A DNA stretch of 64,000 nt from the NCBI GenBank assembly GCA_963733055.1, contig CAVTBR010000001.1, forward strand, positions 608,001 to 672,000. The letters are read 5' to 3'. A program made the position numbers and the translations under genes. Position 1 is the stretch's first letter; the number at the start of each line of letters is the position of its first letter. The stretch comes from Candidatus Bathyarchaeota archaeon. Lineage in GTDB: Archaea; Thermoproteota; Bathyarchaeia; 40CM-2-53-6. The notes under the pieces were generated by a model. That model was not told where the DNA came from and ran no database searches. It worked only from the letters and a program-made list of their open reading frames with translations. Below are positions 33,796 to 62,070 of this stretch, piece after piece.

Positions 33796-34512
33796 TTGTC
33801 AAAGAGAGGTCCTTCAAAGATTATTGTGGTTATCCCCGCCTTTAACTCACAAGAAACGGTAGGGCAAGTCATCGACATGATCCCGAAACCGCCAGTCAGC
33901 GAAGTGATTGTTGTAGATGACGGGAGTCTGGATGAAACGTACGAGAGAGCAATCGGGAAAAGGGCTATAGCGTTGAAGCATCCAAGGAACTTGGGATACG
34001 GCGCTGCCCAGAAAACCTTGTTCAAGGAAGCACTGAGAAGACAAGCGGATGTTGTTGTACTTCTTCACGACGATTTGCAGTATTCGCCGGCGCTAATTCC
34101 TCAGATGTGTGCACCTATCATCGGAGGCGAAGCGGATGTTGTTCTGGGAACGAGAAGGCGTATGATTCATGGAGGGATGCCGATTTGGCGGTACATAGGT
34201 AACAGAGTTTTAACATTCGTCGAGAACTTCGTCCTTCACCTGCAACTGACGGAGTTTCACACGGGCTATCGAGTCTTCTCAGCAAGCGCGTTGACTTCGT
34301 TGGACTTCGATTCTTTATCGAATGACTTTAACTTTGACAGTCAAATAATCTTTTCACTGGTTGACAAAGGAATCAAGATAGTGGAAATGCCAATCCCTAC
34401 GCTATATGGTGAGGGGAGTTCTTCTATCCATCCCTTCAAAGCCGTAAAGTACGGGATCCAGATTCTATTCATGGCACTGAAACGGATTCTACATAATGTC
34501 AGGCTGGTCTGA
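33796..34512 (+). CDS. GT2, Dol-P-sugar synthase-like
   Basis: VVIPAFN, VVDDGS, NLGYGAAQKT, HDDLQY, EFHTGYRVFS. Confidence 0.88.
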   Translation: MSKRGPSKIIVVIPAFNSQETVGQVIDMIPKPPVSEVIVVDDGSLDETYERAIGKRAIALKHPRNLGYGAAQKTLFKEALRRQADVVVLLHDDLQYSPALIPQMCAPIIGGEADVVLGTRRRMIHGGMPIWRYIGNRVLTFVENFVLHLQLTEFHTGYRVFSASALTSLDFDSLSNDFNFDSQIIFSLVDKGIKIVEMPIPTLYGEGSSSIHPFKAVKYGIQILFMALKRILHNVRLV

Positions 34513-39676: not shown

Positions 39677-39831
39677 GGGGCATCGACTCTGGGGACGGCT
39701 TTCGATAATTTTATGATTGTGCAAATCAGGAATCCAACTCCTGAGTTATCGCGTTGGGTCATTTCATTAGTCGAATAAACGCCCTCGTAGCAAGCCTCAT
39801 TCAATCCTGGCGGTGCATAGAATAGCTGTGC

Positions 39832-39849
39832 TCTCGCGGCCTCCTATCA
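39832..39849. repeat. 18-bp perfect direct repeat copy 2, upstream of the radical SAM gene
   Basis: Identical to 37385-37402. Confidence 0.9.
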
Positions 39850-39894
39850 CAATCATGGTCATAGTTCGGGACTAACGCGGGTTTCACCCCGATG

Positions 39895-47294: not shown

Positions 47295-48098
47295 TCAGCC
47301 CGGATTATGGACCACTTCACTTGCTTTTTGACTAGTTAACTTTCTTTGAGTTGAAAGTCGTTTGTTCCAGGTCAGTGCAACGTACCAGAAGCCACATGCT
47401 ACGGCTAGGAATAGGGCGTAGCCTAGGTAAGTGTGGGCTAGGTAGAGCGCGTCTAGACCCCAACGGAAACCTACGAGAATAACTACATACACCCTCAGTA
47501 TCGTCGCCGCAAAGGTAACCCCTACCCCCGTCAGCAATAGGAATACGAGTCTGACTACTCCGAGAGATTTTCCTACGTCTAGGGTTACGAAGCTGAATGC
47601 GGCGATGAACATAAGGAATGAGAGGAATCCTCCACAGAGTGGAGTCACTTCAACTCCCCCAATCATCGATGGAGGTCCGAAGGATAGTATGTCGCCTGAG
47701 ACTGTGACTGGAATGTTAGTTACGTGAAGTAGGGCGACTGTAACGATCACGTTCAGCGTCCCGAATGCTGCGCCCAACGGGGAGCTGGATGCATAGGTTT
47801 CAAGTTGCACTGCATGTATCAGCCACGCAACCACCATCGCAACGCAGAGCACGGGCCACATATCCCGGTAACCCGAAAAGAACCGGGCACCGTAAAGCAC
47901 CCATCTCGAACCAACCGCGAACAACAACACCCCAAACCCCATGACAGTTATCCAAAACGCATCAGCCGCGGAGAGCTGGAAATATCGAAGGATAACGAGT
48001 GAGATGAAAATTAAGATCGAACCAAAAAATACCTTCGCCCTCGACCCCAACTCCATAAACAACTTACCCGCGTTCGATCTTTCGATCAGCTTCAACAC
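47295..48098 (-). CDS. Archaeosortase/exosortase-family transpeptidase
   Basis: Polytopic; EVTPLCGG (Cys), ILRV (Arg), LAHTYLG (His) triad; adjacent to a PEF-CTERM protein. Confidence 0.85.
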   Translation of the reverse strand: MLKLIERSNAGKLFMELGSRAKVFFGSILIFISLVILRYFQLSAADAFWITVMGFGVLLFAVGSRWVLYGARFFSGYRDMWPVLCVAMVVAWLIHAVQLETYASSSPLGAAFGTLNVIVTVALLHVTNIPVTVSGDILSFGPPSMIGGVEVTPLCGGFLSFLMFIAAFSFVTLDVGKSLGVVRLVFLLLTGVGVTFAATILRVYVVILVGFRWGLDALYLAHTYLGYALFLAVACGFWYVALTWNKRLSTQRKLTSQKASEVVHNPG

Positions 48099-48103
48099 AG
48101 CGA

Positions 48104-49582
48104 CTAAACAGGTTTTGGTTTCCTAACTCGGCCGCGGCCACGCTTCGAAACCTGTAACCCAATCACCAGCATCAATAGCGACGCGACCACAGCCAACGGG
48201 TCTGGGAATTCAGGTATCGTATTCTGTCCGGCAATGACGATTACATGTCTTCCGGCAGCATAGGTGAGGTAGACATGGTACGAGTTTGCGTCGGTGAAAG
48301 TTGAAGGGTTAGCAGTCATGTTATCGACGAGCACGACTACTTGCCCGTTGATAGAGCCCATTGGGACGGCCGCGTTTAGGGAACCAATGGACCCGTTGGG
48401 CTCTGTGAGTTGAATTGTGAAGGTTTTGCTCGCCGCGTTGTAGGTTGTATTTGCTGCGTTAACCTGGCCGTTGGTGAGGAAAGCGAGTGTGATGTTTCCT
48501 GATTGAATTGAGGTATATGTTCCCGCGAACCGAGCTTTGAAGAAACCTATGATGTCTTGCAGGATTTCTGGTTGGACGGCGGTTCCTATCCAGACGTGGG
48601 TGTAGGGAAATGGGTCTAGTCGGACGAGGTCGCTTGGTGCGTTTTTGGTCCAGACGAATGCTGATTGCATGCTAATGCTTCCTGAGTCCCCCATGCCCCA
48701 GATTAGGAGGTGGGGCACCTTTGCTTGGCTTGATAATTGCGCCGTCTTGAATACGGCCGGGTCTGTCTGGGTTGAGCCGGCAGGTCCCTGCATTTCGGCA
48801 TCCATTATCACAGCCAAACTGAACAAACCATAATTATCATTCACAAGGGTCCACGCCGCAAGTGTGCCTCCCGCGCTCCAACCGAGCAAATACACTTGGC
48901 TAATACCCATACCATACTTCACAAGGGCCGCGAGGACATAGGGGAAGATTGGGAGATTCTCAACGAACCACCCAATTGGGGCAACCACATTGAAACCAGC
49001 GTTTACGAGAGAGTTGAGGACTCCAATTGTGTTCTGGTCGAGTTGGGTATCGCCGGTGAGGATGGGTTGGTCGTATCCTCCGCTAAAGAATATGACAGCT
49101 GGGAATCCCACGGATTGAATGTTAATGTAGGCATTTAGATGGCCCGTGAATTCGCTCTCATAAATTCCCGCCACGTCTCCTGAAGGCGAGACGTAGGAGT
49201 ATTCGTCGGATAGTGTAGTTGTCCATGCTTGAGCCGAGTCGTTCATTGTGATCTTGAAATGCATTGGGTAATTAATGGAAACGTTGGGCATCATCGCGCT
49301 CAAATGCCACGCCCCGTTCGCGTCGGTGGTCGCGTTTAGACGGGTGGATTGGTAGTTTCCGGCGTCGCTATACTGAATCTGAACCCCACCCTGACCTCCA
49401 CCAAATCGGTCGGTAACCACTCCCGTTAGGTCAACTCTCTCGTCAAACTTGGGCTGAACGTCGGTTGAGTATACCGCGTACTCGCAGCAAGGGCTCGCGT
49501 AAGCTCGGGTTTCATGCGGCAGGAACGAAAGCGAGACGAAAGCCAAGAGCAAGATTGCGAGCGCTGCGCCATGCTTCGACAT
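48104..49582 (-). CDS. Secreted alpha/beta-hydrolase-domain surface protein with PEF-CTERM sorting signal
   Basis: Signal peptide; LGWSAGG nucleophile elbow; C-terminal IPEFP + TM helix + KRGRGRVRK. Confidence 0.82.
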   Translation of the reverse strand: MSKHGAALAILLLAFVSLSFLPHETRAYASPCCEYAVYSTDVQPKFDERVDLTGVVTDRFGGGQGGVQIQYSDAGNYQSTRLNATTDANGAWHLSAMMPNVSINYPMHFKITMNDSAQAWTTTLSDEYSYVSPSGDVAGIYESEFTGHLNAYINIQSVGFPAVIFFSGGYDQPILTGDTQLDQNTIGVLNSLVNAGFNVVAPIGWFVENLPIFPYVLAALVKYGMGISQVYLLGWSAGGTLAAWTLVNDNYGLFSLAVIMDAEMQGPAGSTQTDPAVFKTAQLSSQAKVPHLLIWGMGDSGSISMQSAFVWTKNAPSDLVRLDPFPYTHVWIGTAVQPEILQDIIGFFKARFAGTYTSIQSGNITLAFLTNGQVNAANTTYNAASKTFTIQLTEPNGSIGSLNAAVPMGSINGQVVVLVDNMTANPSTFTDANSYHVYLTYAAGRHVIVIAGQNTIPEFPDPLAVVASLLMLVIGLQVSKRGRGRVRKPKPV

Positions 49583-49607
49583 TGTACTAGCCGCAACACT
49601 CGCAAGT

Positions 49608-49635
49608 AGAGCACTATATTTGCGTTAACCGCTAG
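49608..49635. repeat. 28-bp direct repeat copy 1 (bounds the four-gene block 49675-53038)
   Basis: agagcactatatttgcgttaaccgctag versus agagcactatatctgggttaaccgcaag at 53159-53186 (25/28). Confidence 0.85.
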
Positions 49636-49674
49636 GGTATAGAGGTGACGCAGCAGTTTCCAGGGCCGTTCACT

Positions 49675-50412
49675 TTAACGGACGTCGATCGCGGTTTTGT
49701 CTTGGATGAGTCGTTCCATTTGCCGCTTCGCAAGTAAGAACTTGAGAATGGGGATAATGAATCTCCGCCAATCGATGGCGACGTTCATCTTTGATGTGTC
49801 GTCTCCGTATATGCATCTGATCGGCACTTCGCGCCAGTTAAGGAAGGTAACCGCCTGGGAAAGCATCCAGGGTTCCATCTCGTAGCGGTTGAAGTTGTGG
49901 GCTGGCATTATGAGGCTGTATAAGGCGGATTTGGTGTAGGCACGATATCCGCATGTGTAATCAGTTATGTTTGCGCCGATCATTATCCTAAAGAAATTTG
50001 TAAGCACGATATTTCCAAATCTTCTGACGCGGGGCATCTTAGAGACATCTCCTAAGAACCGACTTCCCTGTACGAATTGCGCTCGATCGTCAACGATAGT
50101 TTTGACGAACTGAATAATGTCATCTGGGTCAGTCTGGCCATCGCCTGCCATGAAGACGACCACGTCGAAATCGATCTTGCGAGCATATTCCACAGCAGTT
50201 CTGATTGCGGCTCCACTCCCAAGATTTTGTTCGTGAGACAGAACTAGGGCACCGGCTTCGAGCGCTTCACTGCGAGTTGAATCCGTACTTCCATCGTCAA
50301 CAACTAACGTGTAGTCGATAGGGCTGTTACGAAGAGATCGAACAACAGTTCCTATTTTTCCTTCTTCATTGAAGGCTGGGATTATCGCCAGTAATTTCTT
50401 TCCGTATAGCAT
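49675..50412 (-). CDS. GT2, Dol-P-sugar synthase-like
   Basis: IIPAFNEE, VVDDGSTD, GAAIRT, MAGDGQTDP, VQGSRF, TDYTCGYRAY. Confidence 0.88.
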   Translation of the reverse strand: MLYGKKLLAIIPAFNEEGKIGTVVRSLRNSPIDYTLVVDDGSTDSTRSEALEAGALVLSHEQNLGSGAAIRTAVEYARKIDFDVVVFMAGDGQTDPDDIIQFVKTIVDDRAQFVQGSRFLGDVSKMPRVRRFGNIVLTNFFRIMIGANITDYTCGYRAYTKSALYSLIMPAHNFNRYEMEPWMLSQAVTFLNWREVPIRCIYGDDTSKMNVAIDWRRFIIPILKFLLAKRQMERLIQDKTAIDVR

Positions 50413-50424
50413 ACAGACCAGTTC

Positions 50425-51099
50425 TCATGTTGACATGCGAAGGTCGCTAACAAATTTCCTGTAGTGACGTATTGAAAGATCGAGCTCTCGCTTCCGTTTC
50501 TGCAAATGCTCCTGAAGTAGACCTTTCCATGATGTTCCAGATTTACTCCACCAGAAAGGGTGGACAAGCGCCTGAATTCGTGTAGATCTGTCGAGGTGAA
50601 GGCACAAGCAGCCTTCGCGCCATCTTTGCAGACTGTCGCTCACGTATTTCATATCCGAGAAGAACTGTGGGGAATATGCGTCCTTTTGCGTTAGACTGAG
50701 ATTCCGCCGTCGCGTTGTTGTTGGATTGTGCATCGAAACTGCAGCAATATGTATCTCGAAAAATCGTGAGACGAAACGGACTTCCGACTTCAATATTGAA
50801 CTTGGGTTTTGGCTTCCTAGCGCGGCAGCGTCATAGTGATAACCAATTTCGTGCCCGAGATCGAGGATTTCATTTACATTCCTTGTGGCCTGCACGTCCA
50901 GCAGATTGTAGAATGGAGAGTGTAGCATTACGAAATATGTTGAGTTTACTCCGAGAGCATGCTCTATTTCTGCCATCCTAACAGCATGGTCAAGTGAGAC
51001 ATCAACGTCATGACGCAGTATGAGTTGTCGGTGCGTGCTCTTGTTTACGTTCTGGAAACCCACGAATCTGTAGCCTAGGGCGTTAGCTTTCAGTAACAT
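50425..51099 (-). CDS. WbmS-like polysaccharide deacetylase (NodB-fold) protein
   Basis: ILRHDVDVS, STYFV..SPFYN, GHEIGYHYD, VSMHNP, YVSDS, LVHPFWW. Confidence 0.8.
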   Translation of the reverse strand: MLLKANALGYRFVGFQNVNKSTHRQLILRHDVDVSLDHAVRMAEIEHALGVNSTYFVMLHSPFYNLLDVQATRNVNEILDLGHEIGYHYDAAALGSQNPSSILKSEVRFVSRFFEIHIAAVSMHNPTTTRRRNLSLTQKDAYSPQFFSDMKYVSDSLQRWREGCLCLHLDRSTRIQALVHPFWWSKSGTSWKGLLQEHLQKRKRELDLSIRHYRKFVSDLRMST

Positions 51100-51130
51100 A
51101 TTCCTGTAATGCGTGTACGTGAAGTTGTGT

Positions 51131-51886
51131 TCACTTCTTGCCGACGAATCCGATCACTTCCTTTGTTGTTATGAACACTCTTTCTCTTTCGAAGTGCTCT
51201 TTGACTGATTGCAGAAATGCGTTCTCGAACGCAGGATTGTATACGTAATACGATTTCCAATAGGTTGTAAGTTGTTCGGGGTGAGTGAAGGTGAGTGTAT
51301 TGGTGAAACGAGCAGTTTCGAATATTGAGAATATTCTTTGCATCTCTCTTCCAACCCGCTTCATTTGTCCGATCGTGTTTGTTCTCGGAAGGGGCATGAA
51401 TGTTTTGCAGAACTTTAGGAGTTCACGATTGTTGCCTACGGTGGGGCCGCACACGAAACACCTACCGCTTGGCTGCAATTTCGTAATTATCTCGTCGATA
51501 ACTCGAATAGGGTTGGCAGCATAGTAGATCGAGAAGTTCGACATTATGATGTCAAAAGATAGTTCTTGAAAACAGTTCAGGGAGTTAAAGTCGGATAGAA
51601 CGGCCTGGACATTACTTGCGCGTGTCTTCTCCGATAGGTCGGATAATTCCCGTAGCAAATTGATGGAGATATCAAGACCAACGGCCAACCCATTCTCACT
51701 TAGCTTCCTCGACAGGTTACATAATTGCCGGCCCGCGCCGCAGCCCAGCTCCAACAGCCTTTCCCCTCTTCTGGGTGCAACATTAGAGAATATCCAATCA
51801 GAGATTTCCGCGCTAGACAAACGGGCATGGATAGATTCTCTGATTGCTGCGTCCTGAGATTGTTTATCAAACAATTGATCCGCCAA
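51131..51886 (-). CDS. Class I SAM-dependent methyltransferase
   Basis: LLELGCGAG, VGLDIS, FDIIMSNFSIYY, LQPSG. Confidence 0.85.
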   Translation of the reverse strand: MADQLFDKQSQDAAIRESIHARLSSAEISDWIFSNVAPRRGERLLELGCGAGRQLCNLSRKLSENGLAVGLDISINLLRELSDLSEKTRASNVQAVLSDFNSLNCFQELSFDIIMSNFSIYYAANPIRVIDEIITKLQPSGRCFVCGPTVGNNRELLKFCKTFMPLPRTNTIGQMKRVGREMQRIFSIFETARFTNTLTFTHPEQLTTYWKSYYVYNPAFENAFLQSVKEHFERERVFITTKEVIGFVGKK

Positions 51887-51982
51887 GAATCGGACAAAAT
51901 TCAGCTTGGGGAGGCGTTCGATTCTCTTCGCGGGACTCGTCCAGCTCGACGGGGCGAGGTTGCACTATCTGTGATGCCCAGT

Positions 51983-53038
51983 CTATTTCCTTCCTTCGCG
52001 ATATTGTTGTCGCATCTGGTTTATGGTCAATCGCAAACCGTCACGAAAGTCGATCTGAGGGCTGAACAGCAGAGTCTGGCGCACTTTTAGGATGGACGGA
52101 TGGAAGTGCTTAACGTGTGGGCGGTTTCCAATATCAATGTGAATTGACTTTCGATTCGATCCGAGGTATTTCAATGTGAGTCTTGCAAGATAGTTGATTG
52201 CGTAGGATCTTCTTCCAGCTATATTTATGGTATGGCCTAACGCGCCCTTGCGGTCTGAGAGAAGAATTGCTCGAACAGCGTCCTGAACGAATAGGAATGG
52301 TCTTGTCTGTTTTCCGCTTCCGTATATGGTAAGAGGCCTGTTGCGAAGAGCTTTGTGGATGAATATTGATACTACACCCCCGTACCGCGAGCTGTCTTGT
52401 CTCGGTCCAAAAACAGAGTGAAGTCTCAGTATCACGCTCTCGATCCCGTACGTATCTACGTATGCTCCCACGTAGGATTCTGCTGCAAGTTTGCTTGCGC
52501 CGTAGATCGTGTTAGGAGATGTTGGCCCATCTTCTCTATTCAGCCCCACTGAACCGTGTCCGTAGACGGACCCGGTGGAAAGATAGATGAATTTCGAATC
52601 AGTTCGGCGCACAGCTTCGAGGATGTTCAACGCTCCTAGACAATTGACGCTGTTACTCAACAATGGGTCCTCGACGCATTGCAGCAGCCGCACGGTCCAA
52701 GCGCCCACAACTACGTTAGGCCGTGTCGATTTTATAGCCTGAGAAATCTTTCTCCCATCCCGCACGTCAATCCGCAGATATTTTGCGGATGGATTCCTAT
52801 AATTGCCCATAGAAAAATTGTCCACAACCACAACTGAATCTCCCGCGACCACGAGATGATCCACAAGATGCCCCCCGATGAACCCTGCGCCCCCAATTAC
52901 AAGCCAGTATCTCCGCCCGGCAGCTTTGATAGAATAACTCGGGTTCATCCGGTTCGACCGACGGTATCTCGATTTTTCTGGATTTGAACGGGTACGCGTC
53001 CAATATTGATTAAGCTGTTCATCCTGCGCACCTAACAT
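51983..53038 (-). CDS. NAD-dependent epimerase/dehydratase (SDR); true start probably at or after 52948
   Basis: IGGAGFIGGH, STGSVYG, YGASK, VFGPRQ, RPFLFVQD. Confidence 0.88.
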   Translation of the reverse strand: MLGAQDEQLNQYWTRTRSNPEKSRYRRSNRMNPSYSIKAAGRRYWLVIGGAGFIGGHLVDHLVVAGDSVVVVDNFSMGNYRNPSAKYLRIDVRDGRKISQAIKSTRPNVVVGAWTVRLLQCVEDPLLSNSVNCLGALNILEAVRRTDSKFIYLSTGSVYGHGSVGLNREDGPTSPNTIYGASKLAAESYVGAYVDTYGIESVILRLHSVFGPRQDSSRYGGVVSIFIHKALRNRPLTIYGSGKQTRPFLFVQDAVRAILLSDRKGALGHTINIAGRRSYAINYLARLTLKYLGSNRKSIHIDIGNRPHVKHFHPSILKVRQTLLFSPQIDFRDGLRLTINQMRQQYREGRK

Positions 53039-53158
53039 CGGCTATTCGCTGTTCGTCGTCCAGAACCGGAGGTCTATCTAACGTGAGGGACAGCAAGTTC
53101 ACGGTCGCCGAAGCGCCAATCTATTCGATCAAAACCACGATACTTCGCCAAGAATAGG

Positions 53159-53186
53159 AGAGCACTATATCTGGGTTAACCGCAAG
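53159..53186. repeat. 28-bp direct repeat copy 2
   Basis: Matches 49608-49635 with 3 mismatches; lies about 35 bp before the GT4 start. Confidence 0.85.
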
Positions 53187-53220
53187 CCTATGGACGGACG
53201 AAGGTGCAGGAGAGCCACCA

Positions 53221-54394
53221 TTGAAGATTTGCATGGTCAATAGTTATTTTCCTCCATGGAGGGGAGGAGCCGAGACATACGTTCACGAGCTCTCGAAGGC
53301 CCTAGCGGTGCGCGGTCACGACGTCACGGTGCTTTGTACATCAGATCCACTCAAACCTGGAACGTGTAATGTGGATGGGGTTCGTGTAAAGAGGCTGCGA
53401 CGATTAACGAGAATCTACGGAACGCCGATACAAGCGGACCTTATCAAAGAACTGCGTGAATGCGACGCTGACATTTTTCACGCCAACTTTCCTAGCCCAT
53501 ATCTCTCCTTCACCGTGGCTCACGCATCATTCTTCAGGAAGATCCCAGCAGTGGTAACCTGGCATAATGATCTCCCTCCAGTCACTTCCGGAGCCCGCAT
53601 CCTAATCGAGGCACACAATCGAGTAATCCTACCCGAATACATCCGAAAATATCGTAAAGTAATCGCCACATCAGAAACATATCGAAGAAAATCTCCGATC
53701 CTCTCCAGCCTAGCACAGCGCAGTCCAAGTCATCCACAACGGAGTCGACTGTGAAAGGTTCCACCCCGGCGTGGATCCATCTTCAATTGAAGCGAGATTC
53801 GCGTTGAGCGGAAAGTTCGTCGTTTTGTTCGTGGGGGCATTAACGAAGTGGCATGGCTACAAGGGACTTGACGTTCTCTTGCAAGCGATGCGAATATCCG
53901 TCAACTCATCACGGAGGATTTTCCTGCTCGTTGTGGGGGATGGGGATTTGAAACCTAAGTATGAATCCATGACTCGTGACCTTGGCTTGGCAAATCATGT
54001 AATCTTCGCGGGCAACCCATCAGACAGAGAATTACCAGAGTTTTACGTTGCATCGAGTCTACTTGCTCTTCCGAGTAAGGATATGTCGGAAGGGTTCGGG
54101 TTGACACTTCTCGAGGCAAACGCCTCGGGACGACCCTGCATCGCCAGCGATACCGGCGGGATACCTGAAATGATCCGCGAAGGTTACAACGGGCATTTGG
54201 TTCCGCCAAATGACGCGCAAGCGCTTGCGCAAGGAATACTCAGTCTCGCGAAAGACGCTGACGCACGACGAAGAATGGGCGAGAATGGCAGAAAAATCGC
54301 ATTGTCACATGACTGGAAAATCGTCGCGAGTACAACCGAAAACGCTTACCTAACTTCAATCGCCGCAACCGAGACAATTAAGAAACCCGTTTAG
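53221..54394 (+). pseudogene. GT4 glycosyltransferase split by a frameshift near 53715 (or a sequencing indel)
   Basis: N-half has GGAETYV and VVTWHND; the shifted frame resumes VQVIHNGVDCERF..YKGLDVLL..EGFGLTLLEANASG. Confidence 0.85.
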
Positions 54395-54441
54395 ACTGTG
54401 TTTTGTTTCAAGACTCAGGTTATTCGTAAAGAGCGTTTGAC

Positions 54442-56274
54442 ATGTTCTTCTTATCGATTTTTCTCGGGCTGATAACGGGGTGCGCACTCATGCTCTTAGC
54501 TAGGACTACCTCAACCCCCAAAATCATACTCGGAGGGTTCGTGTTGGAACTCTCAATAATTATCCTACTCGCCGAAATCTTTGACTCACTCCATATTCCG
54601 GCCAGCGACTCAACCTACCTTCCCATATTCCTTGTACTCGCAATAGTTACCAGCATTCTTGCCTTGCGAATCAATCCTAAACTTTCGGTGAACGGCAAAG
54701 ACCTCGCAATTATGGTAATTGCGCTTGCAATCGTTCTAGTTTTCTTCCATTTTACGTTTCCCTCTCCTCTGCCCATGTCGGACGCCGTGGATACAGCGGG
54801 ACATTACATGATGGCGGAGAATATTCGAGAAACGGGACAATTAACCGGCCCCGGATCTTGGTATAACGTACTTGCTCCGGGTTTAGGGTATGCGGACTAT
54901 CCTTACGGGTACCATGTGGTGGCTGCACTCTTCAGTCAAAGCATCGGCCTACCTCTAATCTTCGTGCTGCAACCCTTTGCAGAGTTGTTAGTTGCCCTCA
55001 CAATCGCAATAACGATTTTCGTCGCCATTGAGTCTACGGGATGTCGGCGTTGGACCGCAGCGCCTCTCATAGCACTCGCGATCATGTCGACCTACACGTT
55101 CGATCTACTCACGTCGGGTTATTACTCTCAAATGATGGGCATCGTACTCACAGTAGGTTTCGTATGGCTCCTAACGAGCCCCGCGGGAAATGGTGTGAAG
55201 GGTTGGGCCCTGTTGTCTCTAATAGAAGCTTCCTTATGGTTAACATACCCTTACCTAACCCCCATCCCCCTTGCAATCCTCATCATCCAACTACTATACT
55301 CTAGAAGCATGACTATCACCCTAAGATTCCTCGGAATTTTCATCGCCTCTACCATTCTAGCGCTACCTCGTGTGCTGTGGTTCGTTCAAACGGCGCTGGG
55401 TCATTATCTGCCGGTAGCCGGAGCGACCTCTTCCCTACGAGACCTCTTACCATTAGCTACAATTGGTTCGCTCGGATTCGCTCTATTCCTAGTTTCGGCA
55501 CGGAAGAACAAATTGACCCTGAGGGAGCTAGCTGCCCCGTCTCTGTTCATCGCAGCTTTGCTTCAAACTCTCGGGTTATACGTAATAGACGAAATCCAGC
55601 ACTACGCATCCTATTTTCTTTTGAAATCAGGGTATCTTGCCTCATTCTCACTCATTGCCATGTCTGGACAACTCTTCAAGAACCTAAGTCTCCCCTCCTT
55701 GGGCTTCGTTAGAAAAATGACCTTGGGGTTAATCTTGGCTGTCTTGATCACAGGAAACATATTGTTTGGAGTGTTCGTCAATTATCGAGCGGTCGAACGG
55801 ACGCAAGCCCTCTCGCTTACGTTTCCAGTTTACGATGCTGCGATGTGGATCAGGAACAATGTGCCGAGCAACGTAACGGTCTGGACCATAGCTACTTCGC
55901 CCATACCATTCTGGGTCTTTACCATCTCTCATCATATATCCCCACAGAACGGGTTTTGGGGTCAACCACCGCCATCAAAGAGTCAATGGTTGAAGCAAGC
56001 GATCAATGGGTCCATGTTGCTGATTGTTGCCGAACCGGAGATCTCGACCGATTGGTTCACGAACGGAGGCTCAATTGGCCTCGCCAATTTCACGGTGAAG
56101 TTTCACGAAGCCAACGCCTACGTAGTCATCTTCAACCCCGAAGGTGGATATAATCAGGGGAATGCAAGCGCGAGTGTTACCCTGCAGAGCACGTTTCTCA
56201 AGCCGAACCCCTCGCTTTCCATCGCAGTTTCAGATTACTCTCATCGCTTCTCTCGACCACGGTTATCATTGTGA
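54442..56274 (+). CDS. Polytopic membrane protein, GT-C-like
   Basis: D..GH in a lumenal loop (DAVDTAGHY), YPYGYHVVAA, about 14 TM segments, DAAMWIRNN C-terminal domain. Confidence 0.65.
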   Translation: MFFLSIFLGLITGCALMLLARTTSTPKIILGGFVLELSIIILLAEIFDSLHIPASDSTYLPIFLVLAIVTSILALRINPKLSVNGKDLAIMVIALAIVLVFFHFTFPSPLPMSDAVDTAGHYMMAENIRETGQLTGPGSWYNVLAPGLGYADYPYGYHVVAALFSQSIGLPLIFVLQPFAELLVALTIAITIFVAIESTGCRRWTAAPLIALAIMSTYTFDLLTSGYYSQMMGIVLTVGFVWLLTSPAGNGVKGWALLSLIEASLWLTYPYLTPIPLAILIIQLLYSRSMTITLRFLGIFIASTILALPRVLWFVQTALGHYLPVAGATSSLRDLLPLATIGSLGFALFLVSARKNKLTLRELAAPSLFIAALLQTLGLYVIDEIQHYASYFLLKSGYLASFSLIAMSGQLFKNLSLPSLGFVRKMTLGLILAVLITGNILFGVFVNYRAVERTQALSLTFPVYDAAMWIRNNVPSNVTVWTIATSPIPFWVFTISHHISPQNGFWGQPPPSKSQWLKQAINGSMLLIVAEPEISTDWFTNGGSIGLANFTVKFHEANAYVVIFNPEGGYNQGNASASVTLQSTFLKPNPSLSIAVSDYSHRFSRPRLSL

Positions 56275-57127
56275 ATAGGATTATCCCGGTGAAGAGTGAG
56301 AGCAGGCCTATGAGGCCGGACGCTATGGAGACTAGTGCTAGGTTAGTTATTACTCGGCCGTAAGTTTGGTAGTAGTTCAAAGTTAGTATGCCGTAGAAGA
56401 CTGAGTTTGCCAACGCAATCAACGCGAACCCCCCGTAGAATAGCAACGGGTGCCTGATGGAAACGAACTTCACGAGACTGAAAAAAACGTCTAACGAATG
56501 CATCAGAGGGTTGTATGTTGATGAGTCTAGGCCGGAGTACGCCGCCGCAATTGGAACTTCAACAATTCGCATTCCCGCCCGATCGGCTTTCATTAGAAGT
56601 TCCGAGTCAGCTCCCATCCCAACTTCAGCAGCCACAAGGCCATCGATCGCCTTCCTAGAGTACGCCCTGAACCCGCTCTGGGTGTCGACGAATCGGTCTC
56701 CGACCTTAACCCGAGTCGCCAAGTCCAACATTCGTGCCCCCGCCCATCGATGGCGTGGCATATCGTTGGGTCTGGCTGTGCGACTCGCTATGACCACATC
56801 AACCTCTCCCATCTCCATCGCGTCTAGAAGCAACGGAATCTTCGACGGGTCATGTTGCCCGTCCGCATCCAAAGTTACGAGAACATCTGCCCCGTTCCGC
56901 TTGGCCCATTCGAAGCAATCCCTTAACCCCGACCCCTTACCAAGATTCTTCTCGTGCCGGACTACCGCGGCTCCTAGACTCTTAGCGATCAGGCCCGTAT
57001 CGTCGCCGCTTCCATCGTCAACCACCAAAACTCTTGTGGCGTACTTTTGGGATCTTACAATTACCTTCGCAATTGTCGCTTCCTCGTTGAAAGCAGGTAT
57101 CCCAACTACGACGTTCAAACGCGCCAC
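56198..57127 (-). CDS. GT2 Dol-P-sugar synthase-like with two C-terminal TMs (AglJ/DPM-like)
   Basis: GIPAFNEE, VVDDGSGD, NLGKG, TLDADGQHDP, DTQSGFRAYS. Confidence 0.9.
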   Translation of the reverse strand: MARLNVVVGIPAFNEEATIAKVIVRSQKYATRVLVVDDGSGDDTGLIAKSLGAAVVRHEKNLGKGSGLRDCFEWAKRNGADVLVTLDADGQHDPSKIPLLLDAMEMGEVDVVIASRTARPNDMPRHRWAGARMLDLATRVKVGDRFVDTQSGFRAYSRKAIDGLVAAEVGMGADSELLMKADRAGMRIVEVPIAAAYSGLDSSTYNPLMHSLDVFFSLVKFVSIRHPLLFYGGFALIALANSVFYGILTLNYYQTYGRVITNLALVSIASGLIGLLSLFTGIILFTMITVVERSDESNLKLRWKARGSA

Positions 57128-57246
57128 CCGGTGGATACCTGCCCATCGCTGCTTAAAATCCCATGACTGACCACAGCCATAACCGGCGAAATCTAGAGGT
57201 TCTAAATTGTTTCAGGCTTACATGAATCGCGCAATTCATGAGAGAA

Positions 57247-58647
57247 TTATCTCAAGAATGTTAGATCTCGCGTTCCGACGATAATTGAGGGTATCACAAA
57301 CAGCGCTAGGATTGGAAGAGCTACCCAATCAAACAGCCGCGTCGACATCCTCGTTCGAAGGGTCGTGACGCCAACCGCGATAAAGTAGAACGCCGGGTAA
57401 TACAGGAACTCAGCGAACCGCTCGTCCAAGTTCCGCAGTCCAACAAACCCACCGATCGGTGGATATGTTGCAAGAAACCCGACCACGAGCCCAACGGAGA
57501 TCAGCCAACTCAACGCAACAACCAACCCCATTCCTCGAGGCTTCTCACGCAGGCTAACCCTAAGCCCGTAGAGGGCGAGGATGGCGAAGGGGGCCTTCCA
57601 CCCGTGCAACAGGAGAAAATACGTCGGACCCCCGTAGATCAAAGCAATATAGGATGAATATTTCAGAATAACAGACCCAACACCGGCGACCAGAGCAACT
57701 GCTAGCGCGAGGTAGGCGAGTCTCTCGTCAACCCGCACGCTCTCCAACCTCCTGAGGCTGCCGAAGTTAGCTACGGCCAAAGAAACCAAAACCACGACGA
57801 ACCCGGCGCACAAGAACAACACGAAGAAGTTACTTCCAAGGGTATTCGATATAATGTTCAACGGGTAGGCACCGAACAATTCCACCCTCCAAATCCTGTA
57901 CAAATCGGGCAGAGCCAGTTTGAGGAAGAGCCCATAGTTTCCAAATGCAAAAACCGTGTACGCGGCGGTCCACCAAGTCGTCTTCTTCAAGATCATTAAC
58001 GATGTGAGTGTTAGCAGGAGAACTACGTAGGAGATTGGGGTATGAAAGATGAGGATAAGGGATGTGACCACGAAGAGGCGTAGAAGAACTTGAACCCCCG
58101 CTCGCTCGAATAGCAACTTCATGTCACGCATCGCCAAGGGGAGCAGGAACAAACCGAACAGGCTCGGCCGCGCGATTGTGGTGGAATAAATCATAACATC
58201 GGACATGGATACGAGAACTACCCCCACCATCGCCACCATGTAGCTCCCTTTCGCGAAGCTCGAATACATTCCAAAAGCGGGCAGCACGTACAGGCAACCT
58301 AACCCAATCGCCAACACAACCAAGGCTGACGCATAGTTCAGTTGAAGGAGTTGGCCGACGGCTGCGGAAGCATAGTAGATACCGGGTCCCTGGGCAAGCG
58401 TCGTCACCGGAATCGTACTATTAGTCTGGTATGTGACAAGTGAGGTTAACCAGAAAGTCTCATCCCCCGCTCGCAAAGGGAAGTAGGGTAGGTAGTATCG
58501 GTCGAACAACTTCAACATGAACTGAGCAACCACGACCAGTACGAGAACTACACCCACGTTTCTCAGCCTGTTTGTGAAGCAGAGGCGAAGGCTGACGATT
58601 GTGAAAACGTAGAACGCGAGCCAGATGAGCGCAGTGGCCAGGGACAT
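57247..58647 (-). CDS. Polytopic membrane protein, GT-C-like
   Basis: GDE in an early loop, QGPG, RP, FH motifs; 12 or more TM segments; likely start 58647. Confidence 0.6.
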   Translation of the reverse strand: MSLATALIWLAFYVFTIVSLRLCFTNRLRNVGVVLVLVVVAQFMLKLFDRYYLPYFPLRAGDETFWLTSLVTYQTNSTIPVTTLAQGPGIYYASAAVGQLLQLNYASALVVLAIGLGCLYVLPAFGMYSSFAKGSYMVAMVGVVLVSMSDVMIYSTTIARPSLFGLFLLPLAMRDMKLLFERAGVQVLLRLFVVTSLILIFHTPISYVVLLLTLTSLMILKKTTWWTAAYTVFAFGNYGLFLKLALPDLYRIWRVELFGAYPLNIISNTLGSNFFVLFLCAGFVVVLVSLAVANFGSLRRLESVRVDERLAYLALAVALVAGVGSVILKYSSYIALIYGGPTYFLLLHGWKAPFAILALYGLRVSLREKPRGMGLVVALSWLISVGLVVGFLATYPPIGGFVGLRNLDERFAEFLYYPAFYFIAVGVTTLRTRMSTRLFDWVALPILALFVIPSIIVGTRDLTFLR

Positions 58648-58874
58648 GTAACAGACACGGTATCCAGATTCTATTGTGCAGATACAAGGGTTTGGGATGG
58701 AGTCGTGAAAAATCAGGTAAGGGCGTTGGTGAGATATGCGCTCCAAGGCAATTTAGAACGAAAAGGGCGACCCGTCCTCGAGAAAAGAGCGTGATTAACA
58801 ATGTTGATTAGACCAAGCAGAAACACGCGGAGTTCGCAATGAGGTTGCGGACAACCCCCGGGGTTCTTTGTTGA

Positions 58875-59999
58875 TTGCAATCTAGATCGCAACCGCTCAT
58901 CATTCTATTCATGGTTCTGGGCTTGAAGGCTGCTTTCGCTGTCTTGCTCAACCACATAGCGGGCACAATACCATCGCCCGTCCCTAACCATGGCAGTTTT
59001 TTCGGATTTGACATTCCGCTGAATTGGATGTATCCGTTCGTTGGATGGGATTCAGTATACTATCACGCAATTGCAGCGAATTGGTATCCTCACGAGCTGG
59101 CACCCTTGTGGGCATATTTCCCACTCTACCCAGCAACGATACGAATGCTGGGATTGCTCGGGCTCGATCTATGGATATGCGGCTTCATAATTTCAGTTGG
59201 GGCTGGTTGCATTAGCATTCTGATTTTTCAGAAGATAGCTGAGGTCTACCTCGACAAGAAAACTTCGCTTGTAACGACCGCCCTCTACTTCCTGCTCCCA
59301 CCAGTCTTCATATTCACTACGGTGAGTTACACTGAATCATTATTCCTCTTGCTCTCTCTAGTCGCATGGTGGGCACACATCAAAGGAAAGACGTTCGCCT
59401 CCGTCGTATCAGCAAGTTTTCTAGTTCTTTCGCGCGGATTCGGTATATTGATACTCTTTCCTTTGGCGTATGATCTGATCCGTAGGAGACAGTTCGAGAA
59501 GGTTCCTCTTCTCGGGCTTCCGATAGCTACGTTGTTGTGTTGGTTGGGGTATGCCTATGTAGAGACAGGAAACGCACTGACGCCTTATGTGGTGCAATCG
59601 TACTGGAATACGGAGCGCGTAATTGAGATTCGGCTGGGGATCATTCTATTCATTACTCATGGCGATCTGAAGATCGTTGAACTCATTCGTCCATATGAAC
59701 TTCTACTTGCCGTCGGAGCATTTTTCATCGTCTTGATCACATTCCTAACTTTTCGTACCTGGAAAATTGATAGCTCTCTAGGAGTCTATTCTTCTACGTT
59801 TCTCCTGTTTACGGGAGCGATCGCGGTAACTCTATTGCAGAATTACGTGTCTTTGGCCCGTTATCTATCAATCATTTTTCCGGTGGGTATGGCTTTGCAA
59901 ATTCGAGATAAATCAATTCTTTACTTGGCGCTGTCGTTGTTAATTTGTTCCGACCTAGTCGCTTGGTGGATGTTTATCTTCACGAACTCCTTCCACTAA
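58875..59999 (+). CDS. PIG-V-like (GT76) lipid-phosphate-sugar-dependent mannosyltransferase
   Basis: GWDSVYYHAIA, AYFPLYP, YTESLFLLL, SRGFG, ARY. Confidence 0.82.
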   Translation: MQSRSQPLIILFMVLGLKAAFAVLLNHIAGTIPSPVPNHGSFFGFDIPLNWMYPFVGWDSVYYHAIAANWYPHELAPLWAYFPLYPATIRMLGLLGLDLWICGFIISVGAGCISILIFQKIAEVYLDKKTSLVTTALYFLLPPVFIFTTVSYTESLFLLLSLVAWWAHIKGKTFASVVSASFLVLSRGFGILILFPLAYDLIRRRQFEKVPLLGLPIATLLCWLGYAYVETGNALTPYVVQSYWNTERVIEIRLGIILFITHGDLKIVELIRPYELLLAVGAFFIVLITFLTFRTWKIDSSLGVYSSTFLLFTGAIAVTLLQNYVSLARYLSIIFPVGMALQIRDKSILYLALSLLICSDLVAWWMFIFTNSFH

Positions 60000-60082
60000 T
60001 GCTTATCCAGCTAATTCAAGGAGCATCAGAGCTAGATCGTTCGCGTTCTTCTGGACAACGATCTGTATTGAGTGGGTCGCTG

Positions 60083-61174
60083 TCAGGCAAAAGGGACTAT
60101 GAGTACACTGCCAAAGGTATAGATAATATTGCCAATTATGATTAGAATCGTCAGGATCTGAAGATATCGTCTCCTTTCAGCCTTGGCTGCGATACGCATT
60201 AGGAAGGGAAAGGCGAAGATTACGTAGCGGGGCACGTAAGCGAAGCCAACCGGTGAGAGGAAGCTCACGAATAACAACACGGGGAGTCCCCACGCGAGTT
60301 CAAGATATGCGGAAGCACGATAGGCCGCGTACGCACCCAACCAATAGAGTGGGTAAACAGGGAGGAAGATGATGAGAGCGTAGTAGATGTTCACGGGCAA
60401 CGACGAACCCATTAGAGTCGACAGGTGTGTCACGACGTAGATCACTGAGGCGAATGGGTATGATAGAAAGCCATACCGAATTCCGTAACCCGCTCCTCCT
60501 TGGCCCCATTGGACGACGTTAAGGCGCAAGTAGAAAAACAAGTCATTGTTTTCGAGAAGCCTGAAAATTGAGAACACAACAAAAGGTAGACTAGGTACCA
60601 AGCCCAACGCGGTGAACCGCGGGCGTTTTCGATACATGCAGTAAAGAAAGCTCGGAATCAAAAGAAGCGCCAGATAATGTGTCGCAACAGCCAATGTCCC
60701 AAATAGCAAAGCCCAATCGACACGGTTCTTAGCTAGCAAATAGAAACTCAGCCCGGCAAACAAGAATGCGGGTATATCCGCGTAAACGTACACGACATAC
60801 TTGAAAACGAAATATGGGAATAGGGACGCGACGACCCCAATCCACATACGTCTAGATAACAGGTAAACCACCGACCCGAACCCTAAGTAACTGACCATGT
60901 TGACGAGAATCGCTGCTTGGACGGGTGGAAGAATCAGTGTTGCGAATGCGATTAGTAACGAGTAGAATGGCATGTGATAGGTGAAAATTGGAATTGATGA
61001 AAAATTACCGGGACGCAACAGATATTCTGACGCATCCCCAACGTTGGCAGCTATGCCAGCCCACCGTGCCGTTCCAAACTGCAATTGAATTGCAGCGAGC
61101 AAGGCTAACTGGGCGAATAGAAGGAGCCCAGGAAAGATTGCCCATTTTATTCGTTCTCTCTTGAATACATCCAT
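60083..61174 (-). CDS. Polytopic membrane protein, GT-C-like
   Basis: GDASEY, MPFYS, ADIP, PRY motifs; about 10 TM segments; likely start 61174. Confidence 0.62.
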   Translation of the reverse strand: MDVFKRERIKWAIFPGLLLFAQLALLAAIQLQFGTARWAGIAANVGDASEYLLRPGNFSSIPIFTYHMPFYSLLIAFATLILPPVQAAILVNMVSYLGFGSVVYLLSRRMWIGVVASLFPYFVFKYVVYVYADIPAFLFAGLSFYLLAKNRVDWALLFGTLAVATHYLALLLIPSFLYCMYRKRPRFTALGLVPSLPFVVFSIFRLLENNDLFFYLRLNVVQWGQGGAGYGIRYGFLSYPFASVIYVVTHLSTLMGSSLPVNIYYALIIFLPVYPLYWLGAYAAYRASAYLELAWGLPVLLFVSFLSPVGFAYVPRYVIFAFPFLMRIAAKAERRRYLQILTILIIIGNIIYTFGSVLIVPFA

Positions 61175-61281
61175 CAGTTTTCCATGCTCTATATGGTCCC
61201 TTAACCCGAAACAATAATCATGTTTTTCTCGCCAGATGTCCTGTCTGTGGGCACACATGACGAATGGAGTGAAGTGAAAAG

Positions 61282-62070
61282 TTGCAAAGTGCACCAGTTT
61301 TGGCCATTCTCTTGGTTATACTCACGATCGCAGCTGCAACGCCGGTCTTTGCCGATCAGACCTCGTTATACTTCCATGACAACTCGGAGATATCCTTCAC
61401 GTACCCCTCATTTCAGTTCGGAGGCTTTCAAGTGTCCGGTATTCAAGCGAGTCCCTCGAGTTCGAGCGGGCGAGTATTCGAGGTGGCGACACCTAGTGCA
61501 CCTTCTAGTGGTGGGGTGGCTGTGACGATGACGGCGACGATCTCCGTTTCAAGTCAACCCCAAGTTTACGCCGCGTTCGTAGCCTGGGTATCTAACCCCT
61601 TCTCCGCGACCGTGACGCTTGACGGGTCCGTGGTGATGCATGTTTGGATGAGTAGCAATGATAGTCTGTACCCGTGGCAAGGATCTGAATTCTTCATGGG
61701 TATCGCGGATTACTCACCCACCAACTCAACCCAGTTTCAGCTTCTAGACGGCTACCAGAGCACCGCCAGTATAGGATACAACGGCTTCACTAGTTCGCCA
61801 AATGAATACGTCGTCAACACGATGAGAATTAATCAACACCAGTTTCAGGCGGGCAGCATGCTGATGTTCATCGCGGGGGCGGGGTCTAACAAGCAAGGAT
61901 ACAGTTTCAACGTCTACTTTGACAGCCCCACCTGGCAATCCCGAGCAGACGTGCCCGCCGACCCCAGCCTAACCGTATCAGAATTCTCAAACCTACTCCC
62001 CATACTACTCTTGACCCTACTCCTACTCCCAATCGTTCAGATCAAACGTAGAAGGACTCGACTCGAATAG
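61282..62070 (+). CDS. Secreted protein with PEF-like (VSEF) C-terminal sorting signal
   Basis: Signal peptide ending VFA; C-terminus TVSEFSN + hydrophobic helix + KRRR. Confidence 0.72.
   Translation: MQSAPVLAILLVILTIAAATPVFADQTSLYFHDNSEISFTYPSFQFGGFQVSGIQASPSSSSGRVFEVATPSAPSSGGVAVTMTATISVSSQPQVYAAFVAWVSNPFSATVTLDGSVVMHVWMSSNDSLYPWQGSEFFMGIADYSPTNSTQFQLLDGYQSTASIGYNGFTSSPNEYVVNTMRINQHQFQAGSMLMFIAGAGSNKQGYSFNVYFDSPTWQSRADVPADPSLTVSEFSNLLPILLLTLLLLPIVQIKRRRTRLE

Follow-up and report, generated by a model that had tools for sequence, protein, structure and literature searches.

At its right-hand end, between positions 47295 and 62070, the 64-kb stretch of contig 1 of Candidatus Bathyarchaeota archaeon analyzed here (referred to as the window; the genome comprises 2.88 Mb and is 96% complete) carries genes for an archaeosortase, for two proteins with PEF-type tails as its putative cargo, for glycosyltransferases resembling synthases of sugars linked to polyprenyl (dolichyl) phosphate (Dol-P), and for several multi-pass membrane proteins, at least some of which are predicted to be glycosyltransferases of the GT-C type. 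Judged by gene content and order in related genomes, these genes constitute a genuine module that recurs. It looks like a system for decoration of the surface coat and not like a glycosylphosphatidylinositol (GPI) anchor pathway of the eukaryotic style. With somewhat better than even confidence, we lean towards a reading in which a variable cassette of GT-C enzymes, encoded together with a sortase–cargo pair, would transfer sugars from Dol-P on the outer face of the membrane and would thus decorate surface structures without building the anchor. An initial annotation of the window had proposed that the sortase attaches its substrates to a glycosylated, GPI-like lipid made by the GT-C proteins or, alternatively, that the latter glycosylate the sorted proteins outside the membrane. 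The genetic elements it listed were all found where it had placed them when translations of the open reading frames were scanned with Pfam and NCBIfam models. The genes on which the argument rests are the following:

47295..48098, minus strand: accessory Cys-type archaeosortase (Art267), recognized by PF09721, TIGR04178 and its Cys/Arg/His residues
48104..49582, minus strand: cargo 1 (IPEF492), with signal peptide, N-terminal beta domain, predicted alpha/beta-hydrolase-like core, beta stalk and IPEF tail
53221..54394, plus strand: glycosyltransferase of family GT4, split into an N-terminal half (53221-53754) and a C-terminal half (53771-54394); PF13439 79 bits, PF00534 144 bits
54442..56274, plus strand: multi-pass membrane protein of 610 amino acids, DUF6541; PF20176 34.8 bits (cut-off 29)
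56198..57127, minus strand: polyprenyl(dolichyl)-phosphate sugar synthase-like glycosyltransferase of family GT2 (GT2_309), recognized by its C-terminal membrane region and its relatives in the PDB
57247..58746, minus strand: predicted GT-C-fold glycosyltransferase (TM499), from an AlphaFold model and Foldseek; true length 466 amino acids from an internal Met
58875..59999, plus strand: PIG-V-like (GT76-type) GT-C protein (PIGV374), with PF04188 match and WD, FPLYP and YTESLF motifs
60083..61294, minus strand: distant PIG-V-like membrane protein (TM403), recognized by hhalign; 363 amino acids from an internal start
61282..62070, plus strand: cargo 2 (VSEF262), with signal peptide, about 200 amino acids, VSEF motif, helix and KRRR

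The modular character of the locus emerges from a comparison that covered 105 genomes of the order and 30 metagenome loci, with the counts of GT2_309 homologues and GT-C candidates referring to the 22 sortase loci that span at least 4.5 kb. The recurring backbone reads sortase – IPEF cargo – GT4 – (DUF6541, PIG-V-like gene or nothing) – GT2_309 – TM499 – (one or more PIG-V-like genes or nothing) – VSEF cargo – S-adenosylmethionine (SAM) hydrolase. The cargo gene adjoins the sortase gene in ten loci in which the cargo proteins share at least 64% identity (the window, L010, L011, L048-L050, L052-L054 and L071), while cargo relatives of 38-39% identity are encoded about 6.5 kb from the sortase in L059 and at a distance of 1.6 kb in L062. 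A homologue of GT2_309 is present in 15/22 loci (a 16th, L066, contains a fragment of 40 residues only) and is the most frequent companion of the Art267 family; given that there are only six GT2_309-like genes in the entire 2.88 Mb of the window's own genome, this adjacency is not a matter of chance. GT-C candidates occur in nine of the 22 loci, seven being homologous to those of the window and two (L055 and L066) belonging to PMT_2 according to Pfam (567 and 595 amino acids). Seven loci contain neither a GT2_309 homologue nor a GT-C candidate within the DNA available.

The membrane proteins encoded between these backbone genes vary from locus to locus. In genome G050, both a PIG-V-like gene and TM403 are missing from the interval that separates TM499 from the VSEF cargo. 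The PIG-V-like genes that take the position of PIGV374 in L052 and L053 encode proteins only 33-34% identical to that of the window, and additional PIG-V-like copies in L048 and L053 are 38% identical, while the flanking sortase, cargo, GT4, GT2 and TM499 proteins of these loci, G050 included, are 72-92% identical. The DUF6541 gene is found in L010, L049, L050 and L052 and is missing from L011, L048, L053 and L071. Absence or strong divergence of PIG-V-like genes next to such well-conserved flanks points to a variable glycan cassette and not to a conserved anchor core, for which variation of the GT-C set among loci with 80-92% identical sortases would be unexpected.

A less demanding explanation would be that the sortase–cargo pair landed, or was kept, in a hypervariable surface island without any biochemical link to the glycosyltransferases. 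The entire window indeed proved to be a single glycan island with about 20 glycosyltransferases plus sugar-nucleotide enzymes when it was scanned for protein families, such that any resident gene would have glycosyltransferases as neighbors, and three further PMT_2-type GT-C genes situated just upstream of the window (contig 1, 593-600 kb) indicate that the island reaches past its left edge. The rarity of Art267, with orthologues in three of the 105 genomes (G043 and G050 among them) and a remnant in G041, and the lack of any detected GT2 or GT-C gene in loci L058, L063, L073 and L074 point in the same direction. Against mere co-location stand the same backbone order, which is retained in differing surroundings over a range of sortase identities between 92% and about 45%, the frequency of GT2_309 homologues compared with their small number per genome, and the existence of a second sortase lineage with a GT-C neighborhood of its own, described below. 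We regard this explanation as unlikely, though worth keeping in sight.

The classification of Art267 as an archaeosortase was confirmed by scores above the cut-offs of the superfamily profiles (PF09721, 40.9 bits, cut-off 25.7; TIGR04178, 30.1 bits, cut-off 23) and by the intact Cys/Arg/His set of the membrane core: all 17 family members aligned share C155 (in VTPLCGGFLS) and H222, and 16 of them have R202. The score with the Archaeosortase C model TIGR03762 (22.1 bits) is far below the cut-off of 100, and the Thaumarchaeosortase model TIGR04297 gave no match at E <= 0.01. By these profile comparisons, Art267 belongs to a subfamily of archaeosortases for which there is no curated model. The family amounts to 46 cluster representatives with at least 46% identity, and since these relatives are typically about 244 residues long, the true start of Art267 is probably the internal Met 25. 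Two further, weak matches obtained with Art267 in the 105 genomes are other sortases. Additional members of the family are encoded near different tailed cargo proteins (L064, 1531-2535; L069, 3192-3995; L074, 12577-14190), which are ice-binding-like (...IPEY, helix and KRR), Ig-like and GHL15 glycosyl-hydrolase-like (...VPGF, helix and RRLRKK).

The gene for IPEF492 precedes that of the sortase on the same strand, with 5 bp in between. Its product ends in ...NTIPEF-PDPLAVVASLLMLVIGLQVS-KRGRGR and VSEF262 ends in ...TVSEF-SNLLPILLLTLLLLPIVQI-KRRR; both tails consist of motif, helix and basic cluster. Orthologues keep [VI]PEF in the case of IPEF492 and V[PS]EF in the case of VSEF262, the latter being represented in G050 (VPEF) as well as in L052 and L053 (VSEF) at the same position, adjoining the SAM hydrolase gene. 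This tail architecture was read by eye; neither cargo matched any NCBIfam model at E <= 0.01, including that for the PEF-CTERM sorting domain (which we take to be TIGR03024), and VSEF262 matched no family of Pfam or NCBIfam. A crude scan for such tails across the genome returned 22 rows, 14 of which exhibit a literal PEF followed by a hydrophobic stretch and a basic tail. Compared with 14 literal PEF tails in 2.88 Mb, two such tails within 15 kb represent an enrichment at the locus. The cargo has 14.2 N-X-S/T sequons per 1000 residues, which exceeds the 95th percentile of the genome (13.0), and other PEF-tailed proteins of the genome are likewise rich in sequons.

An alignment of 11 IPEF492-type sequences, two of which are only 37-38% identical, revealed GWSxGG (S236), D299, H329 and E458/F459 of the PEF motif as invariant. 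S236, D299 and H329 follow the Ser-Asp-His order of alpha/beta hydrolases, and a hydrolase-like core is predicted on this basis. It is thus conceivable that the cargo is a surface-held esterase or an acyl- or glycan-transferase that processes a polymer built by the GT-C proteins, in analogy to actinobacteria, where cell-wall alpha/beta-hydrolases act on GT-C-made polymers. The catalytic residues, conserved in the appropriate order even in the distant relatives, and the constant adjacency to GT4, GT2 and GT-C genes would be in line with this idea, as would a language-model look-up that placed TM499 near AftA_N and EpsG-like clusters and that serves as a lead only. On the other side, Pfam yielded weak matches below threshold (Peptidase_S9, E 0.022) and no family above it, a search of PDB sequences with the cargo provided nothing useful, the structure model calculated from the 11-sequence alignment has a mean predicted local distance difference test score (pLDDT) of 46.7 with values below 50 in the core, and paralogues of the protein occur away from glycan genes. 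We consider a polymer-processing cargo very improbable. The paralogues were noted in G047 (L078) and G048 (L079) as hydrolase-like proteins with a DIPEF tail that are 47% identical over these stretches. A strict dependence of the cargo family on Art267 was considered and rejected in view of such solitary paralogues (47-49% identity) in these two genomes.

The initial annotation spoke of two Dol-P-sugar synthases, and both GT2 proteins of the locus, GT2_309 and a second one of 245 residues (GT2_245), do resemble polyprenyl-phosphate sugar synthases. For GT2_309, the closest structurally solved relatives are of this type (Dol-P-mannose synthase from P. furiosus, 5mlz, E 1.2e-11, followed by ArnC, E 3e-9), and its C-terminus is hydrophobic. 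It scores 121.9 bits with NF058614 and 120.1 bits with TIGR04182, both under the cut-off; as the equivalog models for AglJ, PpgS and the haloarchaeal Dol-P-hexose transferase all remain below cut-off, no sugar is assigned to GT2_309. GT2_245 reaches 101.8 bits with TIGR04182 and 89.8 bits with NF058614, again under the cut-offs.

Among the membrane proteins, TM499 is best characterized. Its AlphaFold model (pLDDT 86.9, predicted TM-score 0.88) adopts a GT-C fold: in a Foldseek search of the PDB, ranks 1-23 are exclusively occupied by GT-C enzymes with AglB (3waj) on top at E 4e-5 and STT3, PglB, DPY19 and AftA among the others, while ArnT, PimE and Pmt4 follow further down. The acidic residues D49, D62 and E63 are nearly invariant. 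In L010 (10821-12222, genome G050), the TM499 orthologue is broken up into an open frame of 180 and another of 306 amino acids.

PIGV374 is the sole PF04188 match in its genome, and the motifs highlighted in the initial annotation (WD, FPLYP and YTESLF) are present. The profile score of 35 bits (cut-off 22.4) stems from a match that spans only positions 58-207 of 443. In PIGV374 and five divergent relatives (33-35% identity), W58, D59, P83-L84-Y85 (in FPLYP) and Y152 (in S-Y-[ST]-E) are invariant; the acidic WD is presumably the PIG-V/GT76 motif of the first outward loop. In eukaryotes, PIG-V attaches the second mannose to the glucosamine-(acyl)phosphatidylinositol intermediate. TM403 is a probable distant relative according to hhalign, which aligned it with the PIG-V-like set over 288 columns (96.7% probability, E 4.6e-10). 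Its family is rare, with 14 matches among 1.84 billion representatives; TM403 itself has no Pfam match, and Pfam searches with 11 members gave no consistent family. Of the four GT-C-like proteins originally claimed, TM499 is thus backed by its predicted fold, PIGV374 by Pfam and TM403 by its distant relationship to PIG-V, while no GT-C link was obtained for the DUF6541 protein. Hhalign did not connect TM499 with TM403 or with the protein encoded at 34581-36080, nor the PIG-V-like set with a GT87-like protein from contig 3 (used as a single sequence), and searches of PDB sequences returned nothing useful for PIGV374 or for profiles A2, A4, A5 and A6.

Does the presence of a PIG-V-like protein indicate GPI anchoring? 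In its PIG-V/inositol form, a GPI anchor is unsupported by the genome searches. PIG-A (PF08288) had no match in the window's own genome while controls were positive, and the GT4 protein of the locus lacks a PIGA domain; inositol-1-phosphate synthase (PF07994) had no match in this genome and was detected in five control genomes; the Phosphodiest family (PF01663), presumably that of the ethanolamine-phosphate (EtNP) transferases, had no match there and was found in 12/14 controls. The searches for PIG-M (PF05007) and GT22 (PIG-B/Z, PF03901) returned no match either, but are void because the controls stayed silent as well. A single PIG-L-family match is located on contig 3, far from the locus. 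These negative results are weak, as six-frame family searches are insensitive for proteins of this kind: a PF09721 search of the same genome missed the window sortase and found solely the sortase on contig 3, at 20 bits. The distribution of the genes leads to the same answer. If the GT-C proteins built a GPI-like anchor, as the initial annotation suggested, PIG-V-like genes and archaeosortases should co-occur across genomes. PF04188 matches are present in 22/105 genomes; 16 genomes contain both PF04188 and a sortase, six PF04188 only, 50 a sortase only and 33 neither. In genus g2, PIG-V-like genes were found in 4/22 genomes and no sortase by the queries used. PF04188 does not track the sortases, which argues against the PIG-V/GPI version of the proposal.

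The second sortase lineage bears on the more general possibility that a glycosylated acceptor other than GPI is involved. Contig 3 encodes a sortase of 389 amino acids that comes closest to TIGR04297 (99.1 bits, under the cut-off of 250). Its type was found in 66/105 genomes and in 21 of the 25 genera of the order, a spread that suggests a housekeeping enzyme for many VPEF-tailed proteins, which are probably its substrates. Hhalign aligned only the Arg/His part of this sortase with the Art267 alignment (A1). In the taxonomic family of the window's own genome, Ser replaces the catalytic Cys: MAFFT alignment and a motif scan showed WPS[SV]G in each of the 17 loci (L015-L026, L037, L038 and L044-L046). 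In other families, WPCxG with Cys occurs in ten loci (among L027-L033, L039-L041 and L043), and the pattern failed to match four loci. The surroundings on contig 3 (about 283-297 kb; L001, L014) comprise a giant PEF protein, a KaiC-like ATPase, a protein of 250 amino acids, a PF10131 protein (77 bits), a GT87-like protein (442 amino acids), a protein of 280 amino acids, TM181, the sortase and another GT87-like protein (433 amino acids). We take PF10131 and GT87 to be members of the GT-C clan; the contig-3 GT87 scores are at or slightly under the cut-off. TM181 is conserved in 12/12 close housekeeping loci and the 433-residue GT87-like protein in 11/12. In 20 distant loci, inspected within 6 kb to either side, the 442-residue GT87-like protein is present in eight, PF10131 in four, either of the two in nine and TM181 in ten, and no GT-C gene was detected in 11. 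A phmmer search with the 433-residue protein found no match in these 20 loci, whereas its 442-residue paralogue did match.

The VPEF-tailed proteins include a set of four paralogues, each about 1,450 amino acids long, whose tails read ...NIPVPEF, helix and a run of K/R (contig 1, 931977-936308 and 1325812-1330275; contig 2, 181639-186027; contig 3, 293103-297473); they probably form part of the surface layer. Next to one of them, at 929 kb of contig 1, lies a GT2_309-like gene.

It is against this background that a glycolipid anchor analogous to GPI has to be weighed, in which the acyl-enzyme intermediate of the sortase would be resolved on a glycosylated lipid or surface glycopolymer produced by Dol-P-sugar synthases and GT-C proteins. 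In the organisms from which they are known, both GT87 (PimE) and PIG-V have lipid-anchored glycans as substrates, and two unrelated sortase lineages, the accessory Cys-type and the housekeeping Ser-type, are encoded amid GT-C genes, in the latter case in 11/12 close and 9/20 distant loci. A further argument concerns the acceptor lipid. In Haloferax, phosphatidylserine decarboxylase is part of a proposed route to archaetidylethanolamine as acceptor (PMC7157517). A gene for this enzyme (PF02666) was detected in just two of the 105 genomes of the order and not in the window's own genome, while Haloferax, Methanocaldococcus and Methanosarcina controls were positive. Judged by these matches, the order seems to lack the route by which haloarchaea make the acceptor lipid, and given sortases in 66/105 genomes, the archaetidylethanolamine model may not apply here, in which case another acceptor would be needed. 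Taken together, these points allow the idea that sortases of Bathyarchaeia hand their PEF-cleaved cargo not to archaetidylethanolamine but to a glycoconjugate, be it a glycolipid or a surface glycan, built by GT-C proteins. We nevertheless deem both this idea and the glycolipid anchor improbable. The negative results for inositol-phosphate synthase, PIGA and the Phosphodiest family, the lack of co-occurrence of PF04188 with sortases, the variability of the GT-C set and the distant housekeeping loci without GT-C genes speak against such an anchor; besides, no pathway for an amine-bearing acceptor is evident in the locus. What survives of the link between sortase and GT-C proteins drawn in the initial annotation is an association at the level of loci in two sortase lineages; its PIG-V/GPI version is unsupported.

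The reading we favor, decoration of the surface coat from Dol-P-linked sugars, can be spelled out as follows. GT2 enzymes of the Dol-P-mannose synthase/ArnC/AglJ type would load a sugar onto polyprenyl phosphate at the cytoplasmic face of the membrane. The lipid-linked sugar would then flip, and on the outer face the GT-C proteins (TM499, the two members of the PIG-V superfamily and possibly the DUF6541 protein) would transfer it to surface-coat glycans bound to protein or linked to lipid, PEF-tailed proteins possibly included. The GT4 protein, the methyltransferase and the epimerase may provide additional steps. Art267 would cleave its cargo at the PEF motif and fix it at the surface. VSEF262, a second putative cargo with its V[SP]EF motif, closes the locus. 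The second alternative of the initial annotation, glycosylation by the GT-C proteins outside the membrane, fits the parts present, i.e., Dol-P-sugar-synthase-like GT2 proteins, GT-C proteins and a sequon-rich cargo. It corresponds to the AglD/AglS paradigm of Haloferax, in which a Dol-P-sugar synthase and an outer-face GT-C protein act on the glycan of the surface layer.

Several observations weigh against this reading. Both the acceptor and the sugar are postulated. In GT2_245 the membrane tail is missing, and among solved structures its relatives are confined to soluble enzymes of the GpgS type. The DUF6541 protein has neither an hhalign link to TM499 nor a match among PDB sequences. The GT4 gene is frameshifted by a one-base insertion near 53722, while DNA alignment with G050, G043 and L052 shows a single frame in the relatives. 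Either the gene is a pseudogene or the assembly is wrong at this point, and the cassette may thus be partly inactive in its own genome. The assignment of IPEF492 as a hydrolase derives from motifs and sub-threshold Pfam matches with a structure model of low confidence, and its solitary paralogues in G047 and G048 sit in a housekeeping context with no sortase or glycosyltransferase nearby. Finally, the compared loci are kin, and the recurrence counts are inflated as a consequence.

The remaining genes of the locus form a block (49675-53038) that was found here only:

49675..50412, minus strand: AglJ/PpgS-like GT2 protein (GT2_245); PF00535 79 bits
50425..51099, minus strand: protein of 224 amino acids with no Pfam or NCBIfam match and no meaningful PDB sequence match
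51131..51886, minus strand: SAM-dependent methyltransferase; PF13847 62.9 bits
51983..53038, minus strand: nucleoside diphosphate (NDP)-sugar epimerase/dehydratase; PF01370 166 bits

On the minus strand, the order is epimerase, methyltransferase, 224-residue protein, GT2_245, IPEF492 and sortase; the other genes follow as GT4 (+), DUF6541 (+), GT2_309 (-), TM499 (-), PIGV374 (+), TM403 (-) and VSEF262 (+). Beyond VSEF262, housekeeping genes begin with those for SAM hydrolase, archaeal-type nicotinamide mononucleotide adenylyltransferase (NMNAT) and Ogt, of which the NMNAT gene agrees with the archaeal origin of the window. The glycan island as a whole contains about ten GT2 genes, several GT4 genes, genes of the RmlA-D and UDP-glucose dehydrogenase types and a pyruvyl transferase gene, and it also encodes a radical-SAM protein, an AsnB-type amidotransferase (39895-41811) and an ABC-2 permease. 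The radical-SAM protein (707 amino acids) and the amidotransferase (638 amino acids) adjoin each other at 37601-41811. According to the initial annotation, two more GT-C proteins and two more Dol-P-sugar synthases should be encoded elsewhere in the window, which is roughly right: we found a PMT_2 protein (31078-32421), a putative glycosyltransferase of the LA_3751/2 family (34581-36080) and further AglJ/PpgS-like GT2 proteins (33796-34512 and 4691-5431). The oligosaccharyltransferase AglB is encoded in the genome about 560 kb from the island.

How does the locus compare with known systems? To our knowledge, haloarchaea are the only group in which the chemistry of anchoring by archaeosortases has been investigated. 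Among the matches listed in our literature searches, which did not reach the founding archaeosortase paper, none linked archaeosortases with GT-C proteins, dolichol, glycolipids or GPI; likewise, nothing on such loci appeared among the matches listed for archaeosortases together with PEF-CTERM or Bathyarchaeota, and 'DUF6541' gave no literature matches. The Archaeosortase C/PEF-CTERM system (TIGR03762/TIGR03024), reportedly described by Haft et al. in 2012, shares with the locus a multi-pass Cys/Arg/His sortase and cargo tails composed of PEF, helix and basic residues; unlike it, Art267 is an accessory enzyme of rare occurrence whose gene adjoins that of a dedicated cargo and has genes for Dol-P-sugar synthase-like and GT-C proteins as neighbors, and it stays far from the ArtC model (22.1 vs 100 bits). 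The Thaumarchaeosortase/PEFG-CTERM system comes nearest to the contig-3 sortase (99 bits, below 250), which has Ser at the Cys position, whereas Art267 is not matched by TIGR04297 and keeps its Cys. In exopolysaccharide loci of bacteria, PEP-CTERM proteins occur with exosortases (EpsH/XrtA). Here, too, a sortase-family enzyme is embedded in a large glycan locus with GT4, GT2 and AsnB-type amidotransferase genes, but the host is archaeal, polyprenyl-phosphate-sugar synthase-like and GT-C proteins replace machinery of the Wzx/Wzy type, and there is a single adjacent, enzyme-like cargo. With eukaryotic PIG-V/Gpi18 (GT76), PIGV374 has in common a PF04188 score above cut-off, the WD loop motif and a nearby Dol-P-sugar-synthase-like GT2; in contrast to it, the match is confined to the N-terminal third of the profile, and in sister loci the gene is either exchanged or missing. 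The resemblance to Haloferax AglD/AglS, i.e., a GT2 protein of the Dol-P-hexose synthase type combined with a multi-pass glycosyltransferase that would add a sugar outside the membrane, is one of analogy: the models for AglJ and the Dol-P-hexose transferase (DPhHxTase) score below cut-off, and AglB is encoded outside the island. ArtA of Haloferax volcanii, which processes PGF-CTERM proteins and acts together with PssA/PssD, depends on an active-site Cys and leads to lipid anchoring of surface glycoproteins (PMC7157517). Cleavage of a tripartite C-terminal signal, lipid anchoring and an active-site Cys would be common to ArtA and the sortase of the locus, while the signal here is PEF and not PGF, the genes are clustered with those for glycosyltransferases and phosphatidylserine decarboxylase has no match in the genome.

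For the family, the locus would define an archaeosortase subfamily with fixed partners, namely a hydrolase-like PEF cargo, a GT4 protein, a Dol-P-sugar-synthase-like GT2 protein and GT-C proteins, in a host order that is almost devoid of the gene for the haloarchaeal acceptor lipid (phosphatidylserine decarboxylase in 2/105 genomes). When a prokaryotic protein matches 'PIG-V' of Pfam, this should not be counted as evidence for GPI anchors. Should the sortases of Bathyarchaeia after all transfer their cargo to a GT-C-built glycoconjugate, this would amount to a functional analogue, without inositol, of GPI anchoring or of the sortase-mediated attachment of proteins to the cell wall. In any case, the sortase and its cargo, with or without the GT2 and GT-C proteins, make up a small and concrete gene set with which it can be asked whether protein sorting and glycosylation at the outer face of the membrane are coupled.

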